DNA of 5,466 bases from a virus (taxonomy: Duplodnaviria > Heunggongvirae > Uroviricota > Caudoviricetes): IMG/VR virus record IMGVR_UViG_2675903538_000015, positions 1 to 5,466 of that record. The stretch is one strand, 5' to 3'. A program made the position numbers and the translations under genes. Each line of letters opens with the position of its first letter. Within the stretch, counting starts at the first letter, position 1. Of this stretch, positions 1-5,466 are shown in pieces. The notes beneath the pieces are model-generated. The model worked only from the letters and a program-made list of their open reading frames with translations, was not told where the DNA came from and did not search any database.

Positions 1-321
1 GAAGCGTATTGCCAGGACATTCCCGCGCCACTGAAACGCCTTCTTCCTGACTATAAACGGATGGAAGAAAAAATAGACGCCGTAATCCGTGAGAAATACG
101 GGTTACCCCCAGTTATGAGTACACCCGTGAAATATGCCGATCTCATCATGCTGGCAACCGAACGCCGCGATCTCGGGCTTGATGATGGCTCTTTCTGGCC
201 TGTACTGGAAGGTATCCCGGCAACAGAGATGTTCAACGTGATTCCACTGGCTCCGGGCCATGCCTACGGGATGTTTATGGAACGTTTTAACGAGTTATCG
301 GAGTTACGCAAATGCGCATGA
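1..321 (+). CDS. Hypothetical prophage early-region protein, 5'-truncated by the window edge (C-terminal fragment)
   Basis: Frame 1 is open from base 1 with no stop until TGA at 319-321, so the gene starts upstream of the window; the ATG at 61 is probably internal. Stop overlaps the next gene's start region. No confident family assignment from sequence alone. Confidence 0.55.
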   Translation, partial: EAYCQDIPAPLKRLLPDYKRMEEKIDAVIREKYGLPPVMSTPVKYADLIMLATERRDLGLDDGSFWPVLEGIPATEMFNVIPLAPGHAYGMFMERFNELSELRKCA

Positions 322-662
322 ATGTTTTCGAAATGGAAGGGTTTCTTCGCGGGAAATGTGTACCACGAGATCTGAAAGTGAATGAAACAAATGCTGAGTA
401 TCTGGTGCGTAAATTCGATGAAGTACGTGCTGAGGCTCGCAACGAGGGTATTAACTATACCGCAAGCCGTCTTGCTGCGGCTTTCAATCACGGATTTATC
501 AATAAGTCTTTACGTGAAGTTTTCGACGTTACACGCATGATTCTGTCAGCGAAAGAAGAGTTGGCTAATGAACCACACCCGATTGATGGCCTGTCCGGTG
601 AATATGCGGAGAAATCCCTAGAAGAATGGGCGGAACAGCTTCGCAAAGGAGGCAACCAGTGA
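312..662 (+). CDS. Hypothetical phage protein (116 aa), function unknown
   Basis: ORF with ATG at 312 (alternative ATG at 318 forms an ATGA overlap with the upstream stop at 319-321); GGAG at 300-303 upstream. Stop TGA 660-662 overlaps the GTG start of the next gene. Acidic, helical-looking sequence; no recognisable catalytic motif. Confidence 0.6.
   Translation: MRMNVFEMEGFLRGKCVPRDLKVNETNAEYLVRKFDEVRAEARNEGINYTASRLAAAFNHGFINKSLREVFDVTRMILSAKEELANEPHPIDGLSGEYAEKSLEEWAEQLRKGGNQ
645..652 (+). promoter_or_regulatory. Shine-Dalgarno (AAAGGAGG) for the Ea22-like gene
   Basis: Near-consensus SD 6 nt upstream of GTG at 659-661; lies inside the 3' end of the upstream CDS, consistent with translational coupling. 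Confidence 0.6.
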
Positions 663-1357
663 GCGAGATTAACTATCAGGCTCTGCGACTGGCGGCAGAA
701 AATGCAACACCAGGCGAATGGTGTGCTGATGACTACCATGGAGTAATTGCCGATGCCGGACTGAACGCCAATTACTACATAGCATCATGCTCAGGACCGG
801 ATAATCGCTCCAATAAACGATTCATAGCCGCAGCCAATCCGGCTACCGTGCTGGCACTGCTGGATGAGAACGAAAGCATGTGCCGCGACCTCATTGCTCG
901 CAATGGTGAGATTGAAGGGCTTCGAAAACTGGTTGCTGAACTTGAGGAGACAAAATCAAAACTCAACGAGCAGCGTGAATATTACGAAGGTGTTATCTCG
1001 GATGGAAGTAAGCGTATTGCTGAACTGGAGAAAAGCGAAGAGCAACTCATCAGCGAGCGAGATCATGCTGAGTCTGCTTTAGCTGATATGTATTTTGCAG
1101 CAACCGGGGATAGGCCGGAGTGGAGCAACTTGTTCGGCTTTTCAGATGCTGTAGATGCCGTGGTTGACAGAATTGCTGATTTAGAAGCTAAACAGCCATC
1201 GCCAGTAGTACCGGAAGGACTGATTAAAGCGGTGCGTTTTTATGAACAGGTAAAACGTGAGAACCCGCCAGTCGAAACAGGGGCATGGAAAGACGCTGTT
1301 GACTGGGTGCTCAAAGAGGCTTGCCAGGCTGTAAACATTGGCATCAAAGGAGAGTGA
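659..1357 (+). CDS. ead/Ea22-like family prophage protein with central coiled-coil
   Basis: Translation from GTG 659 begins (V/M)SEINYQALRLAAENATPGEW and contains FIAAANPATVLALLDE, a pattern I recognise from lambdoid ead/Ea22-like proteins, followed by a Glu/Leu/Lys-rich heptad-like segment (LRKLVAELEETKSKLNEQREYYEG...ELEKSEEQLISERD). The six-frame track starts at ATG 626 in the same frame, but GTG 659 has the much better SD. Ends TGA 1355-1357. Confidence 0.7.
   Translation: MSEINYQALRLAAENATPGEWCADDYHGVIADAGLNANYYIASCSGPDNRSNKRFIAAANPATVLALLDENESMCRDLIARNGEIEGLRKLVAELEETKSKLNEQREYYEGVISDGSKRIAELEKSEEQLISERDHAESALADMYFAATGDRPEWSNLFGFSDAVDAVVDRIADLEAKQPSPVVPEGLIKAVRFYEQVKRENPPVETGAWKDAVDWVLKEACQAVNIGIKGE
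1341..1357 (+). repeat. 17-bp direct repeat copy 1 (GCATCAAAGGAGAGTGA) at a gene junction
   Basis: Exact 17-mer identical to 1835-1851. It encodes the C-terminal -IKGE* of the Ea22-like protein and contains the SD (AGGAG) for the downstream gene. Confidence 0.85.
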
Positions 1358-1359
1358 GA

Positions 1360-1851
1360 ATGCAAATTTCACCGGTTACTCTTCGTGTTGCGAAGGCGTT
1401 TATATCCAGACATCACCGACACAATAAACCACCTGTTGGGCATAAATTCAGCATTGGTCTGATAAATGATGCCGGAGAATTGATAGGTGTGGCGACAGCT
1501 GGTCGACCTGTTGCACGACATTTGGACGATGGATTAACGCTTGAAGTAAATCGCACATGTACCACAGGAGAACGCAACGCTAACAGCGCGCTTTATGGTG
1601 CTGTCTGGCGGGCAGCAAAGGCTATGGGTTATCAACGTTGTATTACGTACACCCAGGCAGATGAATCAGGAGCATCTCTTCGCGCTGCTGGTTTTGTTCG
1701 TGTGAAAGAGCTTCCTCCAAGAAAAAGCTGGGCGGAATCAAGCGTCGCCCTGCGGAGTAAACGCGATCCGGTCGGAAACGGTGGTATTCCTCGTGTGCTC
1801 TGGGAAATCAGGAGAATGAGTACCACTGGCATTCGCATCAAAGGAGAGTGA
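1360..1851 (+). CDS. Hypothetical protein (163 aa) with GNAT-like acyltransferase-fold features; function unknown
   Basis: ATG at 1360, 7 nt after GGAG at 1349-1352; the track's 1321 start is an in-frame upstream TTG inside the preceding gene. The C-terminal half (NANSALYGAVWRAAKAMGYQRCITYTQADESGASLRAAGFVRV) resembles the GNAT motif A/B region (small-residue loop, then ...LY...GF). The N-terminus carries a basic His-rich patch (ISRHHRHNKPP). Ends -IKGE*, TGA 1849-1851. Confidence 0.65.
   Translation: MQISPVTLRVAKAFISRHHRHNKPPVGHKFSIGLINDAGELIGVATAGRPVARHLDDGLTLEVNRTCTTGERNANSALYGAVWRAAKAMGYQRCITYTQADESGASLRAAGFVRVKELPPRKSWAESSVALRSKRDPVGNGGIPRVLWEIRRMSTTGIRIKGE
1835..1851 (+). repeat. 17-bp direct repeat copy 2 (GCATCAAAGGAGAGTGA) at a gene junction
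   Basis: Exact copy of 1341-1357; again encodes C-terminal -IKGE* and the SD for the following gene (ATG 1853). Confidence 0.85.
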
Positions 1852-1852
1852 T

Positions 1853-2368
1853 ATGGCGTTAACACACCACGAACTCTGTCAGATTGCGTACAAGTTCCTT
1901 AAGCGCAACGGGTTCAAGGTTTGCTTTCATGACCGCTTTGTTGCTGTAACCAGTACCGGAGAACAGCCAGATGCTATGGGATTCAGAAATTCAGCATCAT
2001 GCCTGATAGAGGCGAAGTGTTCTCGTGCTGACTTGTTGGCAGATAGAAAAAAGCGTTTCCGTAAAAATCCCTCACTTGGCATGGGCGACTGGCGATTCTT
2101 TATTAGTGAGCCGGAAATTATTTCAGTTGAGGATTTACCTCCCGGCTGGGGATTACTTCACGTTGTTAACGGAAGAGTACGGAAAGTACATGGATGGCCC
2201 AGGGGTAATTGCTGTTGGGGTAATCCTGACGATAAGCCATTTACCGGGAATAAGCAGGTTGAATGCGATTACATGTTATCTGCATTAAGGCGCATGGAGC
2301 TAAGAGGACACCTTAATGAAATATATGACGGTGTAATTGTTAATAAGAAAGAAGGAAACGCAGCATGA
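1853..2368 (+). CDS. Putative PD-(D/E)xK nuclease-fold protein (171 aa)
   Basis: ATG 1853 is 6 nt after GGAG 1843-1846. The translation contains ...TGEQPDAMGFRNSASCLIEAKCSRADL..., i.e. an acidic residue, then PD, then about 12 residues, then E-A-K. This matches the spacing of the restriction-endonuclease-like PD-(D/E)xK core. Stop TGA 2366-2368 overlaps the next ATG (ATGA). Confidence 0.6.
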   Translation: MALTHHELCQIAYKFLKRNGFKVCFHDRFVAVTSTGEQPDAMGFRNSASCLIEAKCSRADLLADRKKRFRKNPSLGMGDWRFFISEPEIISVEDLPPGWGLLHVVNGRVRKVHGWPRGNCCWGNPDDKPFTGNKQVECDYMLSALRRMELRGHLNEIYDGVIVNKKEGNAA

Positions 2369-3408
2369 CCACTTTAACCGACAAAGAACTGATTAAAGAA
2401 ATCAGAGAGCGAATCGGCAGCCTGGACGTCCGAGACAATATTGAGCGTCGGGCTTATGAAATTGCTCTGGAATCGCTGGAAGCAGAACCAGTTGCTTATA
2501 TTTTCAAACATCCGGCCGGGAAATTATTCTGGGCTTTAACGGATGAAAGCAATAAAGAGCAACCGGACGTTATTCCTGTTTATGCTGACTCACCTGCGCC
2601 GGTTGTGCCGGATGAAATAGACGTAAACGATGTACCAAGGGCGGTGACATATTTCAAGACACACAGAGATTGTTACGCAGATGGCTGGAACGCCTGCCGC
2701 GCCGCCATGCTTCAGTCCGGAAACTTTCGGGAAAACAAGAATTCGTCAACCAATAATTTTCGGGAAATCGCGGAAACGTCAACCAACTATCCGGTAATTC
2801 CTAGTGAGGTGTTGTCCGCAATCCGGGAGGTTGCCAAGATTCGTGCCGATTTCGATGATTTTGACGGTGACAGGCGAGGTATCGGTGATTGTCTGGATGA
2901 GGCCGAGCAAGAGCTTATCGTTACCATTAACAAATATGCCAGTCAGTTGGCAGCAGAACCGATAGCGACTAATGACGTTCGAGAGCAGCAGACAGCCGTT
3001 CCGCCAGTTCCGGAAATACAGGATGATGTCGCGCAAGCAATTGAAAATCTCAAGCAGAAGTTAGTGGAATGCAATCGCTATAACTACTGCGCAGATGCAG
3101 TTAAAGGCGTAGAGGATGCCTGCCACGCTGCCATGCTTCAGGGTAGCCAACCTGTAAGCCAAACTTACAAGTTGCCAGTTAATACACCTTGCCAAGATGC
3201 GCCAGCCCATATCTGGCTGCAAACGGCTGGAGTATGGCCAGAAGATGGCGAGTTAAGTGAATTAACGTGGTGCAGCCACAATCAGCACCATGATGACACG
3301 CTATATGTTCGAGCTGACCTTGTGAATGGCAACTCTCCGGTAACTCCGGATAGTTGGATAAGCTGTAGTGATCGAATGCCGGACGACAGGCAGGAGGTGA
3401 ATCAATGA
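2365..3408 (+). CDS. Hypothetical prophage protein (347 aa) with an internal duplicated Cys-containing motif
   Basis: ATG 2365 follows GAAGGA at 2350-2355. Two copies of a related segment occur: CYADGWNACRAAMLQ and YCADAVKGVEDACHAAMLQ, with a 22/24 nt match at 2692-2715 versus 3118-3141. A low-complexity NFRENKNSSTNNFRE linker lies around 2724-2780. The C-terminus ends ...PDSWISCSDRMPDDRQEVNQ*. Stop TGA 3406-3408. Confidence 0.7.
   Translation: MTTLTDKELIKEIRERIGSLDVRDNIERRAYEIALESLEAEPVAYIFKHPAGKLFWALTDESNKEQPDVIPVYADSPAPVVPDEIDVNDVPRAVTYFKTHRDCYADGWNACRAAMLQSGNFRENKNSSTNNFREIAETSTNYPVIPSEVLSAIREVAKIRADFDDFDGDRRGIGDCLDEAEQELIVTINKYASQLAAEPIATNDVREQQTAVPPVPEIQDDVAQAIENLKQKLVECNRYNYCADAVKGVEDACHAAMLQGSQPVSQTYKLPVNTPCQDAPAHIWLQTAGVWPEDGELSELTWCSHNQHHDDTLYVRADLVNGNSPVTPDSWISCSDRMPDDRQEVNQ
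3392..3397 (+). promoter_or_regulatory. Shine-Dalgarno (AGGAGG) for the small hydrophobic ORF
   Basis: Consensus SD 7 nt upstream of ATG 3405; embedded in the 3' end of the upstream CDS. Confidence 0.5.
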
Positions 3409-3488
3409 GCTGGCCTGATGCAATCGTAACTCTGGGGGTGGTATTCGCAGCAGCGTTTGTTGTGTTCTCGATTTGTCGATGGGGATAA
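3405..3488 (+). CDS. Small hydrophobic peptide (27 aa, MSWPDAIVTLGVVFAAAFVVFSICRWG), predicted single transmembrane helix
   Basis: Not in the ORF track because it is too short. ATG 3405 overlaps the upstream stop (ATGA) and is preceded by a perfect AGGAGG; TAA 3486-3488 lies 4 nt before the next gene's ATG. Core of about 18 uninterrupted hydrophobic residues flanked by D and R/W. Confidence 0.45.
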   Translation: MSWPDAIVTLGVVFAAAFVVFSICRWG

Positions 3489-3492
3489 CCAC

Positions 3493-3735
3493 ATGTTCGC
3501 TTTGATTCAACGCGGTCAGATATACACGGACAGAGCTGGATACCCCGTGGTGATTACTCGCATCACTGAGCACTCAGTGTTCTTTCGACGGATGGACGGA
3601 CGCTCCGGGCGGGTACGCATTGGTGAGTTAAACTGCCTGTTCGAACATATTGACCACCAGGAGTACCGCAAAATTCTCGCGGACACTGAGCAGGAAAAGC
3701 ACCTGAAAAAATTACGAGCCATAAAAAGGAAGTAA
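3493..3735 (+). CDS. Small hypothetical phage protein (80 aa), basic C-terminus
   Basis: Probable start at ATG 3493 (the track's 3457 start is an in-frame TTG upstream). Sequence MFALIQRGQIYTDRAGYPVVITRITEHSVFFRRMDGRSGRVRIGELNCLFEH... resembles small beta-rich prophage proteins found near integrases, possibly a DUF4222-like family; this is recalled, not verified. Ends TAA 3733-3735. Confidence 0.55.
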   Translation: MFALIQRGQIYTDRAGYPVVITRITEHSVFFRRMDGRSGRVRIGELNCLFEHIDHQEYRKILADTEQEKHLKKLRAIKRK

Positions 3736-3738
3736 AGA

Positions 3739-3828
3739 ATGAATAAAGCATTTGAACGATGGGTCCACCAGCGTTACGGCAATCGCTATGACCTGACGCG
3801 AGATGTTGACGGCTTCTACTGTCGTTAA
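3739..3828 (+). CDS. Possible small ORF (29 aa, MNKAFERWVHQRYGNRYDLTRDVDGFYCR), or the 5' part of a disrupted small gene
   Basis: ATG 3739 is 6 nt after AGGAAG (3727-3732). The frame stops at TAA 3826-3828, but the same frame continues for 14 more codons (VVKRMFEVWCHCRG) to TGA 3871-3873. Very short; coding status uncertain. Confidence 0.2.
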   Translation: MNKAFERWVHQRYGNRYDLTRDVDGFYCR

Positions 3829-3891
3829 GTTGTGAAGCGAATGTTTGAAGTGTGGTGCCACTGCCGTGGATGAAAATTTTATGAGGTTGGC

Positions 3892-4146
3892 ATGCAGACA
3901 ATCATCTATCAGATAACCCCCAGCAAATGGTGTACGGAGAGAGTCCTCATTGCATCAACAGGGCTAAAGCCTGGCACCATTGAGCGGGCAAGAAGAAAGT
4001 CATGGATGCAGGGAAAAGAATACCGCCATTACGCTGTAGAAGGTGATCCGGGGCACTACAGTGAATGCCTGTACAACATCGAAGAAATTATGCGATGGAT
4101 CGAAAACCAGAAACAACCAGGTGCCAAAAATGCAAGTTCCGGTTAA
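3892..4146 (+). CDS. xis: Putative excisionase / Xis-like DNA-binding protein (84 aa)
   Basis: Sits immediately upstream of the integrase in the same orientation. Small protein with Trp/Arg/Lys/Tyr-rich pattern (...SKWCTERVLIASTGLKPGTIERARRKSWMQGKEYRHYAVEG...YNIEEIMRWIEN) typical of winged-helix excisionase-like proteins. GAGG at 3884-3887 upstream of the ATG; TAA 4144-4146. Confidence 0.6.
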   Translation: MQTIIYQITPSKWCTERVLIASTGLKPGTIERARRKSWMQGKEYRHYAVEGDPGHYSECLYNIEEIMRWIENQKQPGAKNASSG

Positions 4147-4179
4147 CCTGTTAATGCTCCTGGACGTCTGGGAGGTTTA

Positions 4180-5466
4180 ATGAGTAACGCATCATACCCG
4201 ACAGGCGTTGAAAACCATGGCGGATCACTCCGCATATGGTTTCACTATAACGGCAAACGTGTCAGAGAAAACCTCGGTGTTCCTGACACCGCCAAAAACC
4301 GGAAGATCGCAGGTGAACTTCGCACTTCCGTTTGTTTTGCAATCAGAATGGGGAGTTTCGACTACGCCGCGCAGTTCCCTAATTCCCCTAACCTGAAACA
4401 CTTTGGCTTGGGGAAAAGAGAGATAACAGTTAAGGCACTTTCGGAAAAATGGCTGGACCTTAAGAAAATAGAGATAGGAAGCAATGCATTCAGTCGGTAT
4501 CAATCCGTAGTGAGAAACATGCTTCCTCGCATAGGGGAAAAACGTCTTGCTTCGTCTGTAACAAAGGAAGATTTACAGTTTATCAGGAAAGATTTGTTAA
4601 CCGGGTATCATAATCTCTCTAATGGAAAAACAACGCCGGTTAAAGGGAGATCGGTAGTTACGGTTAATTACTACATGACGACAATTGCAGGAATGTTTCA
4701 ATTTGCTGCTGATAACGGCTATATCGGGTCAAACCCATTTAACGGGCTGACACCATTAAAGAGATCAAGAACAGAGCCAGATCCGCTCACGCGTGACGAA
4801 TTTATTCGCTTTATTGATGCCTGTCACCATCAACAAACGAAAAACCTGTGGTCCTTAGCAGTATACACAGGCATTCGTCACGGTGAGCTAATAGCTCTCG
4901 CCTGGGAGGATATTGATTTAAAAGCTAAAACAATGACTATCCGTCGTAATTATACAAAACTAGGGGAGTTCACTCTACCAAAAACAGAGGCGGGAACTGA
5001 TCGTGTTATTCATCTTGTTCAACCAGCTGTTGATGCCCTGAAAAGCCAGGCTGAAATGACAAGGTTTGACCAGCAATATCAAATTGATGTCAAACTGCGG
5101 GAGTTCGGACGCAGCACAAGCCATGAATGCACGTTTGTTTTTAATCCGCAACTGGTGAAAAAATGCCAGCACGTCGGCCACCACTATAAAGCAGATTCCA
5201 TCAGAGATTCCTGGGCATCTGCATTAAGGCGAGCAGGACTGCGGCACAGAAAAGCCTATCAGTCTAGGCATACTTATGCCTGCTGGGCATTATCGGCAGG
5301 AGCGAATCCAAGCTTCATAGCAAACCAAATGGGCCATGCAAATGCACAAATGGTATTCAACGTTTACGGCGCATGGATGGAAGATAACAATATCGGGCAA
5401 ATAGAACTACTCAATAAGCAGTTGACAGAGAGTGTCCCATACATGCCCCATAGAGCCAGACTCTGA
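4180..5466 (+). CDS. int: Phage-type tyrosine site-specific integrase (428 aa), complete
   Basis: GGAGG at 4171-4175 upstream of ATG 4180. Box I-like GIRHGELIALAWEDIDL; box II-like AYQSRHTYACWALSAGANPSFIANQMGHANAQMVFNVYGAW, with the predicted nucleophilic Tyr at codon 5365-5367 (TAC). Stop TGA 5464-5466 is the end of the window. Confidence 0.9.
   Translation: MSNASYPTGVENHGGSLRIWFHYNGKRVRENLGVPDTAKNRKIAGELRTSVCFAIRMGSFDYAAQFPNSPNLKHFGLGKREITVKALSEKWLDLKKIEIGSNAFSRYQSVVRNMLPRIGEKRLASSVTKEDLQFIRKDLLTGYHNLSNGKTTPVKGRSVVTVNYYMTTIAGMFQFAADNGYIGSNPFNGLTPLKRSRTEPDPLTRDEFIRFIDACHHQQTKNLWSLAVYTGIRHGELIALAWEDIDLKAKTMTIRRNYTKLGEFTLPKTEAGTDRVIHLVQPAVDALKSQAEMTRFDQQYQIDVKLREFGRSTSHECTFVFNPQLVKKCQHVGHHYKADSIRDSWASALRRAGLRHRKAYQSRHTYACWALSAGANPSFIANQMGHANAQMVFNVYGAWMEDNNIGQIELLNKQLTESVPYMPHRARL

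Follow-up and report, generated by a model that had tools for sequence, protein, structure and literature searches.

Whether phage mosaicism arises through homologous exchange at short linkers or through random illegitimate joining followed by selection is an old debate. The modular theory of Susskind and Botstein (1978) is said to have placed conserved sequences, called linkers or boundary sequences, where lambdoid genes adjoin, and Clark et al. (2001) reportedly described boundary sequences in HK620 and in the nin region. The usual objection is that linker sequences are not found at most mosaic boundaries (PMC3029335), and traces of flanking homology have been seen in only ~30% of mosaics (PMC3945230). 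Our work here concerns a 17-nucleotide (nt) sequence, GCATCAAAGGAGAGTGA, that occurs at both junctions of a single gene in a 5,466-nt stretch of DNA from a virus of the Caudoviricetes (IMG/VR record IMGVR_UViG_2675903538_000015, positions 1 to 5,466; this whole stretch is called the window below). The repeat is not private to the gene that it brackets: it is the standard 3' junction of ea22-family genes, that of phage lambda included. We consider it probable that this element acts as a pool-specific gene-boundary linker, providing a stop codon and the Shine-Dalgarno (SD) sequence of the next gene as well as a short homologous joint for the exchange of modules.

The element is like the boundary sequences described in lambdoid phages in that it is short, conserved at the junction of unrelated modules, a proposed site of homologous exchange, and overlapping both the stop codon that ends one gene and the signals that start translation of the following one. 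Unlike them, it is the 3' end of ea22 itself (with a second joint at the ea22 5' end) and is translated as a C-terminus; it lies in the exo–xis/ea region, with further copies in the nin region; it has been copied onto unrelated cargo genes, which are thereby bracketed by repeats; and it occurs in distinct versions in different phage pools. The bracketed gene also recalls the morons of lambdoid phages such as HK97 and HK022, extra genes whose concept PMC3029335 summarises: it too is an accessory gene, present or absent between two genes that adjoin each other in related phages. A classical moron has a promoter and a terminator of its own, whereas this unit would be expressed through its operon and the SD at its junction and is bounded by direct repeats. 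We rejected a classical moron for its lack of both signals: promoter-like sites between positions 600 and 2500 numbered 0 against 2.3 expected, and terminator-like sites 3 against 1.9 expected, with none on the + strand past 1851 as a cassette terminator. Integron cassettes, too, are single genes without a promoter, arrayed one after another with a conserved sequence prone to recombination behind each (compare the three-copy array L125 below). Theirs is an attC-type imperfect palindrome, used by an IntI integrase together with attI; the repeat here is coding sequence plus an SD, and exchange presumably proceeds by general or phage homologous recombination, not by a site-specific reaction. In the literature we found neither the ea22 3' element described nor its copies on cargo genes nor its pool-specific versions, and nothing relevant on the element sequence itself or on 'XF1762', the family name of the cargo. 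The idea of linkers at lambdoid junctions is old, and the ea22 element is an unusually clear new case of it.

The repeat pair and the 3' junction of ea22 genes

The window holds exactly two copies of the 17-mer, both on the + strand (1341–1357 and 1835–1851), with no third copy even when 3 mismatches are allowed, and two copies appeared in 0 of 200 dinucleotide-preserving shuffles of the window. Identity extends to 21 of 22 nt (1336–1357 against 1830–1851, at a spacing of 494 nt), with a G/C difference at 1340/1834, and among the direct repeats in the window only this 1336/1830 pair sits at gene junctions. Copy 1 comprises the last codons and TGA (1355–1357) of the Ea22-like open reading frame (ORF) 659–1357, which ends ...NIGIKGE-stop, and copy 2 the last codons and TGA (1849–1851) of the 163-codon ORF 1360–1851, which ends ...TGIRIKGE-stop; the motif AAGGAG lies 7 nt upstream of ATG 1360 in the first and 6 nt upstream of ATG 1853 in the second. 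The search, the shuffles, the ORFs and the SD positions thus confirm what the preliminary description had read from the window, namely a repeat at both junctions of one gene, each copy being the IKGE end of an otherwise unrelated protein, its stop and the SD of the next gene. Its statement that a 492-bp coding sequence is 'precisely flanked' was right about the size but not about the flanking, copy 2 being the 3' end of the coding sequence itself and the unit measuring 494 bp. All genes in the window lie on the + strand, and their order resembles a pL-type early operon, ending in xis (3892–4146) and int (4180–5466). The features of the locus are as follows.

643–662, + strand: 5' junction of the ea22-like gene, AAAGGAGGCAACCAGTGAGC, another conserved joint, at the left edge of the ea22 module
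659–1357, + strand: Ea22-like gene, 232 codons, Pfam Ead_Ea22 (PF13935, E 2.2e-23), ending ...NIGIKGE-stop
714–1825, + strand: block (ea22 body, copy 1 and cargo) replaced in sibling prophage L328, its right end abutting copy 2
1336–1357, + strand: repeat copy 1 (perfect 17-mer 1341–1357), with the Ea22-like tail, TGA and the SD AAGGAG (1347–1352) for ATG 1360
1360–1851, + strand: cargo gene, XF1762-family Mom-like GNAT-fold protein of 163 amino acids (aa), by NCBIfam, PHROG and fold match
1816–1851, + strand: non-native C-terminal extension of the cargo, MSTTGIRIKGE-stop, fused to the native end ...VLWEIRR
1826–1851, + strand: repeat copy 2 in its widest form, CTGGCATTCGCATCAAAGGAGAGTGA (perfect 17-mer 1835–1851), with an ea22-type tail and TGA 1849–1851
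1841–1846, + strand: SD AAGGAG of copy 2, serving ATG 1853
1853–2368, + strand: downstream gene, 171 aa, P7 Upf89.0 family (phrog_9263, 1e-120)

The identity of the element follows from comparison with ea22 genes at large. Phage lambda's own ea22 ends GCTGGCATTCGCATCAAAGGAGAGTGA (...DAGIRIKGE-stop), and lambda has kept the element though no gene starts after it. The 3' ends of lambda ea22 and of numerous other ea22 genes are identical to the wide form of copy 2 (1826–1851), which matches most other ea22 gene ends across 26 nt. The gene upstream of the cargo is a clear member of the family, scoring 83.8 bits against PF13935 (cut-off 27), and it is annotated ead/Ea22-like in an Escherichia coli ARS-C301 prophage that is 99.8–99.9% identical to the window. 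To avoid circularity, 80 Ea22-like genes were collected independently of the 17-mer, by N-terminal similarity alone; the exact 17-mer ends 38 of these 80 (26 of 53 unique proteins) and variants with 1–5 mismatches end a further 12, the next ORF usually starting 1 nt past the stop or overlapping it. The exact 17-mer is found at no fewer than 120 loci in IMG/VR, and 479 deposited phage records match a 31-nt query around copy 2 (366 across at least 80% of the query); these are mostly E. coli, Stx-converting, Shigella and Salmonella phages, with P1/P7-like plasmid prophages included.

The same comparison bears on the C-termini of Ea22 proteins, all of which, among those compared, end in a '+GE' tripeptide (K/R-G-E), a motif whose meaning its describers called unknown (Dydecka et al. 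2020, PMC7093339). The residues seen here are the same, the IKGE end of the Ea22-like protein being of the +GE type. What differs is that the account lies at the DNA level, in the SD and stop of the junction element, and is common to genes other than ea22: K-G-E-stop is written AAA-GGA-GAG-TGA, which is the SD AAGGAG in frame and then a stop, and K-G-E is what AAAGGAGAG, the SD itself, encodes in frame.

The ea22 module is bounded on its other side as well. At the 5' junction the TGA of ORF 312–662 (...RKGGNQ-stop) overlaps the GTG start at 659, and this joint recurs 153 times with up to 3 mismatches in 134 of 215 sources, with ~41 upstream and ~43 downstream sequence types as neighbours and, in some cases, non-Ea22 genes behind it.

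Mosaic flanks, slot states and linker versions

The element stands as an island of identity between flanks that differ. Among the matches listed, the 17-mer has 141 exact occurrences in 118 unique contexts, both flanks differ in 85% of context pairs, and similarity around the element fades within 0–19 nt on the left and 0–8 nt on the right. More than 100 distinct ORFs end in it, and at least 26 protein families are found directly downstream, among them dATP/dGTP pyrophosphohydrolase-DUF551 proteins, a ClpX-type zinc-finger protein, several small ORFs and, commonest in the same matches, the P7 Upf89.0-like gene (cluster D0, 23 occurrences). When up to 2 mismatches are allowed, 171 of 205 occurrences end Ea22-linked ORFs; others end XF1762/Mom-like genes (22), a small MKNRKAK... 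ORF (3), a 71-aa Cys-rich ORF (2), an HNH/AP2 endonuclease (1), a frameshift remnant (1) and a holin-like ORF (1), the last being probably a chance match.

As a control for chance we scanned one genome per species (596 Gb), a set whose hits are mostly chance matches and lambda contamination and which serves as a control only. Its 113 hits consist of 75 without ea22 context, 32 of phage lambda and 6 of other lambdoid phages; since 69 hits are expected for a random 17-mer, the 75 context-free hits place the sequence at the random level outside lambdoid contexts. The 32 lambda hits lie in assemblies of unrelated organisms such as Streptomyces, Prevotella, Streptococcus equinus, Piscirickettsia, Bradyrhizobium and Pseudomonas (L222, L229, L247, L251, L263, L279, L291 and ~25 more), on contigs mostly of ~0.3–1.6 kb, and show the lambda ea22 end with lambda's own flanks; these 32 species-representative assemblies look like cases of lambda DNA contamination.

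Mosaic breakpoints fall at both copies. Among the cassette-bearing loci, 19 of 21 lose similarity to the window at 1855–1857 and 8 begin at 1336–1339, and among the cassette-free loci 20 Ea22 alignments stop exactly at 1357 and alignments of the downstream gene start at 1820–1840.

The slot between the Ea22-like gene and the downstream gene is found empty, filled and differently filled. Phage EC.W1-9 has an empty site, ...aacattGGCATCAAAGGAGAGTGAtATGGCGTTAAC, in which a single copy joins the same Ea22 end to the downstream gene of the window. Complete E. coli genomes were searched with a synthetic empty-site query (300 nt per side), and the best 60 genomes comprised 55 with an empty slot (a single-piece match of 581–600 bp), 4 with a filled one (+494 bp) and 1 that was different. 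In E. coli 214-4 the slot holds a 65-codon ORF (MKNRKAK...LRTKGE-stop) between degenerate copies and the same two flanking genes, and in L125 the Mom-like gene and a 71-codon Cys-rich ORF lie between three exact copies (1642–2369; spacings 494 and 217 nt). In L117, an HNH_3/AP2-domain endonuclease ORF (~1063–1606, on the reverse-complement strand) sits inside an ea22 shell: behind a 5' junction and initial codons of the ea22 type comes the HNH body, and the ORF closes with the ea22 tail ...GVAGIRIKGE-stop. The cassette is 93–99% identical across its contexts and occurs with several Ea22 variants upstream and at least 5 different genes downstream; in L126 its repeats are 26 bp long. The preliminary description had taken the repeats to make the GNAT-like gene an insertable and deletable cassette, and had reserved the chance that they were a coincidental motif at gene ends; single-copy relatives, other genes between the copies, and a 17-mer that ends more than 100 ORFs and precedes at least 26 families speak for the first. 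A cassette bounded by an exchange linker is supported by the slot states and by the breakpoints at both copies, and we infer recombination within the linker from the same comparison.

The array L125 is the 58-kb circular E. coli plasmid pPRO_A-1504-6M-A_3, a plasmid-borne prophage-like element that also carries hicAB. In two E. coli chromosomes (L133, L134) the nin region of other prophages contains the same Ea22-like gene, element and downstream gene, with replication gene P on one side and rusA on the other, which suggests that the module is mobile between the two operons, pL and pR.

A sibling prophage (L328), whose integrase and integration site are the same, aligns to the window at positions 1–713 and again from 1826; between those stretches it has another ea22 body, with one copy at its end. 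Relative to this sibling, block 714–1825 appears to have been exchanged as a unit, and the sole crossover at the linker would be the right one, at copy 2, the left end of the block lying just past the shared 713 bases, ~55 bases into ea22. The whole arrangement of the window was found in 1 of 5,426 complete genomes. The preliminary description had further called the gene recently acquired, which is not supported: the cassette has a GC content of 0.498, like the neighbouring genes, and its base composition bears no sign of foreign origin; it is widespread and somewhat diverged; the block around it was exchanged whole; and no near-isogenic empty prophage was found among the 5,426 genomes.

Relatives of the cargo in other genera carry other C-terminal extensions, each a perfect direct repeat of the end of the local upstream gene. 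The cargo is bracketed by a 23-bp perfect repeat, CGCCGCTGGCATCAAGGTGGAGG, in Klebsiella (L330–L332), by one of 26 bp, TGGCATCCAGGTTATCGAAGGAGAAG, in Salmonella (L333–L335), and by one of 31 bp, TGGCATCAAATTGCAGATCGAGGGGGAGTGA, after an Ead_Ea22 gene in a metagenomic prophage. The Klebsiella-type version is itself widespread, at a minimum of 120 loci; among the matches listed it has 107 unique contexts, 94% of whose pairs differ on both sides, and it is always followed by CTGAGTGATG and then by diverse genes. The E. coli and Klebsiella versions were never found in one locus among those sampled. The joint between cargo and tail, ...ACCAC(C/T)GCTGGCATC, is common to the E. coli and metagenomic versions, and the 3' part of the tail follows the local pool, as would be expected if crossovers recur in the element and homogenise it within each interbreeding phage pool. 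In Klebsiella the cargo adjoins the Kiwa defence genes kwaA/kwaB, and the second gene downstream of it in Salmonella encodes a 664-aa C5 DNA methylase, which would put the slot in a defence/anti-defence neighbourhood.

The Mom-like cargo, its tail and its neighbours

The cargo belongs to a large family (5,640 hits for XF1762) and matches NCBIfam XF1762_fam (NF045478) over residues 3–136 with 204.5 bits against a cut-off of 50 (6.1e-61), and phrog_1384, 'Mom-like DNA modification protein', at 4.7e-42. Against Pfam Mom (PF25680) it reaches 23.5 bits, below the gathering score of 27.1, and many of its close relatives have a precomputed PF25680 hit. Searching the PDB by sequence, with the protein itself and with a 50-sequence profile, gave nothing relevant, and Mom was reached by fold search only: the AlphaFold2 model of the cargo (pLDDT 84.5) has phage Mu Mom as its top PDB match in Foldseek (8bv8, E 1.3e-8, TMq 0.72), with many GNAT acetyltransferases ranking behind it. 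In view of these matches the earlier label 'GNAT-like' was correct and 'Mom-like' is the more exact one, which is also the name that PHROG and NCBI annotators give to relatives. The cargo differs from its best structural match in length (163 aa, of which ~152 native, against 231–241 aa), in sequence (~10% identity), in its place in an early operon where that of Mom is late, and in that no com regulator gene is present, the gene upstream being Ea22-like. Mom is a GNAT that uses Gly-tRNA for hypermodification of DNA adenine to N6-carbamoylmethyl-adenine (PMC13219725, PMC7261163), and its residues S124, R151, R111 and H58/Y59 are important in catalysis (PMC13219725). A weak hhalign alignment (E 0.012, probability 3.5%) pairs the invariant H19 of the cargo with H58 and R65 with R111, leaving S124 and R151 unplaced. 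We regard the cargo as a candidate anti-restriction gene, a predicted Mom-like DNA modifier.

Close relatives of the cargo are 150–155 aa long and end 1–3 residues past ...VLWEIRR, the ZF40 homologue ends ...LWEVRR-stop, and a K/R-G-E/D tail is present in only 5 of 120 close relatives; in the model the last strand covers residues 145–151 and the tail has low pLDDT. Judged by its family, the last 10–11 codons of the cargo gene, copy 2 included, are foreign to XF1762. All E. coli cassettes share the joint AGGA(G/T)AATGAGTACC(A/G)CTGG(C/T)ATTC, point substitutions allowed, which points to one ancestral illegitimate fusion of the cargo gene to an ea22-type tail that then spread. With one A fewer, AGGAGAATGAGT would again give a native AGG-AGA-TGA stop, and a joint just past M153 is equally likely because close relatives end ...RRMK-stop. 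A supposed second Mom-like paralogue with a native stop, in L011, was rejected as a chance match inside a 26-codon ORF. In phages Kapi1 and TL-2011a (L128, L130) the cargo has a second 5' variant, MVISPITLKAAQEF..., and is preceded by a junction resembling the Klebsiella version, GGCATCAAGGAG(T/G)AGTCTGAGTGATG, and followed by the exact E. coli-type 17-mer; the different linker versions at its two ends suggest a crossover inside the cargo gene.

Two genes downstream of the cargo deserve mention. The 171-codon ORF at 1853–2368 is intact in the window and of the same length as the annotated coding sequence in phages EC.W1-9 and Stx2-1717 (gp06). RefSeq shows at the equivalent place, in the ARS-C301 prophage (L127, 6654–6832) and in many other genomes, only a 179-nt 'frameshifted' pseudogene, a call that is probably an annotation artefact. 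The next ORF, 2365–3408 (EaA/DUF551-like), contains a 24-nt repeat (2692–2715 and 3118–3141, 92% identity) that encodes ...AC(R/H)AAMLQ twice, and an adjacent imperfect tandem duplication of 32–33 nt at 2722–2786 through which NFRE... is encoded twice; these internal repeats suggest that its protein was built by module duplication.

Mechanism and competing explanations

The observations that an account of this locus has to accommodate are the repeat, the foreign tail of the cargo, a slot that is empty, filled or differently filled, breakpoints at either copy and repeat versions that differ by lineage. The element consists of ~17–30 bp that code for ...GI(R/G)IKGE, a stop and a strong SD for a gene 1–2 nt further on, and it is near-identical in nucleotides across lambdoid phages of E. 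coli, Shigella and Salmonella, with both flanks mosaic. We suggest that it would drive expression of the next operon gene, and that phage or host recombination functions would swap modules at it. The XF1762/Mom-like gene would once have been fused illegitimately to an ea22 tail, which lengthened its ORF by 10–11 codons; as cargo behind an ea22 gene it would then be bracketed by two copies, so that a single crossover at either copy could give it new neighbours, and unequal crossover or slippage between the copies would produce an exact 494-bp deletion.

Several points weigh against this proposal. The homology-dependent crossovers that it places within the element are ones that we infer from where similarity ends. 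The 3' half of the element could be kept by selection for the arrangement of SD, stop and start alone. The first set of loci was picked by exact match to the 17-mer and carries a selection bias, which the independent Ea22 sample offsets in part. With no near-isogenic empty prophage found among the 5,426 complete genomes, no recent event is documented for this prophage. Finally, minimal efficient pairing lengths are 23–27 bp for Redbeta and 31–34 bp for RecA (PMC3945230), and the two copies in the window share 17 perfect bp, under both, such that direct recombination or deletion between copy 1 and copy 2 should here be inefficient and rare. Copy 2 and most ea22 ends share 26 bp, or 30–31 bp where the spacer base and ATG also match, which reaches the Redbeta range.

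In one rival reading, which we regard as unlikely, conservation is functional only. The element would have been kept as a good SD and stop for translational coupling, its repeats would be passive scars of one unequal illegitimate crossover, and exchange would proceed by random illegitimate recombination and selection of the kind described by Hendrix, not by homology at the element. Such a reading accommodates the persistence of an SD-like GGAG and a stop in diverged variants, a next start that nearly always lies 1–2 nt past the stop or overlaps it, the clearly illegitimate joint between the native cargo end and the tail, and a shared length here below the pairing minima. It accounts poorly for the bases that SD and stop can spare (GCATC, CTGGCATTC), which are identical, synonymous positions included, between otherwise unrelated genes, and for lambda, which retains the element without a gene starting behind it. 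Random joints, moreover, are not expected to fall repeatedly at both edges of a 17–30-bp island in more than 100 contexts, nor would they leave two phage pools with two internally uniform versions and a cargo tail that follows the local one.

That the shared peptide itself matters, C-terminal ...GI(R/K)...GE being a functional module such as a degron or docking peptide of Ea22 and accessory proteins, seems quite improbable to us. The +GE end of all Ea22 proteins compared (PMC7093339) would fit a peptide tag, as would the covariation of the cargo tail with the tail of the upstream protein in four lineages; against it, the copies are identical in nucleotides down to synonymous sites, the tail is predicted to lack structure and by far the most members of the XF1762 family do without it, other cargos hold only fragments of it (LRTKGE, LRSIKGE), and K-G-E is simply the SD read in frame.

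A direct repeat around a single gene that is present in some genomes and absent from others, and that differs by lineage as a duplicated local target would, could also be the target-site duplication of a mobile element, whether a transposon, a homing endonuclease or an integron-like cassette insertion. We hold this to be very improbable. The unit's sole ORF encodes a GNAT-fold enzyme, with neither transposase nor endonuclease, its ends lack terminal inverted repeats, the repeat varies in length from 17 to 31 bp, and the same element in single copy ends more than 100 ordinary ea22 genes. An integron cassette was likewise rejected, the element being neither palindromic nor otherwise of dyad symmetry; there is no integron integrase or attC-like structure, and the nearby integrase is of the lambda type, with arm-binding and Phage_integrase domains.

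Coincidence, two unrelated genes that happen to end alike, is barely credible and was dismissed: sequences containing an SD are common at gene ends and the context-free hits in the 596 Gb are about as many as the ~69 expected, but none of the 200 shuffles held two copies, empty and filled genomes exist, the cargo tail is foreign to its own protein family, and the pattern recurs with other sequences in other lineages.

A linker that both serves translation and offers a joint for exchange is thus the reading we favour, and it can be extended. The 3' and 5' junction elements of ea22 could together form a dedicated, pool-specific cassette-exchange system of enterobacterial lambdoid phages, with linkers of 20–30 bp kept uniform by concerted evolution. 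The linkers would then act as a compatibility barcode, with whose help Rad52-type phage recombinases would assemble and rearrange arrays of small accessory genes that lack promoters, such as those for a Mom-like DNA modifier, for an HNH nuclease and for small Cys-rich proteins. In function this would be a recombinase-light analogue of the integron within the early operon. We offer this extension as speculation and consider it rather unlikely.

For the debate over whether mosaics are made at short linkers or by random joining and selection, the locus is a clear, abundant and experimentally tractable case: an element of 17–31 bp in more than 100 contexts, with empty, filled and alternative sites and with versions specific to phage pools. 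It also offers a simple reading, at the level of DNA, of the '+GE' ending of Ea22 proteins, a motif that its describers in 2020 had left without a known significance. And it shows a route by which a candidate anti-restriction gene may pass among prophages of E. coli, Shigella, Salmonella and Klebsiella, Stx phages included.

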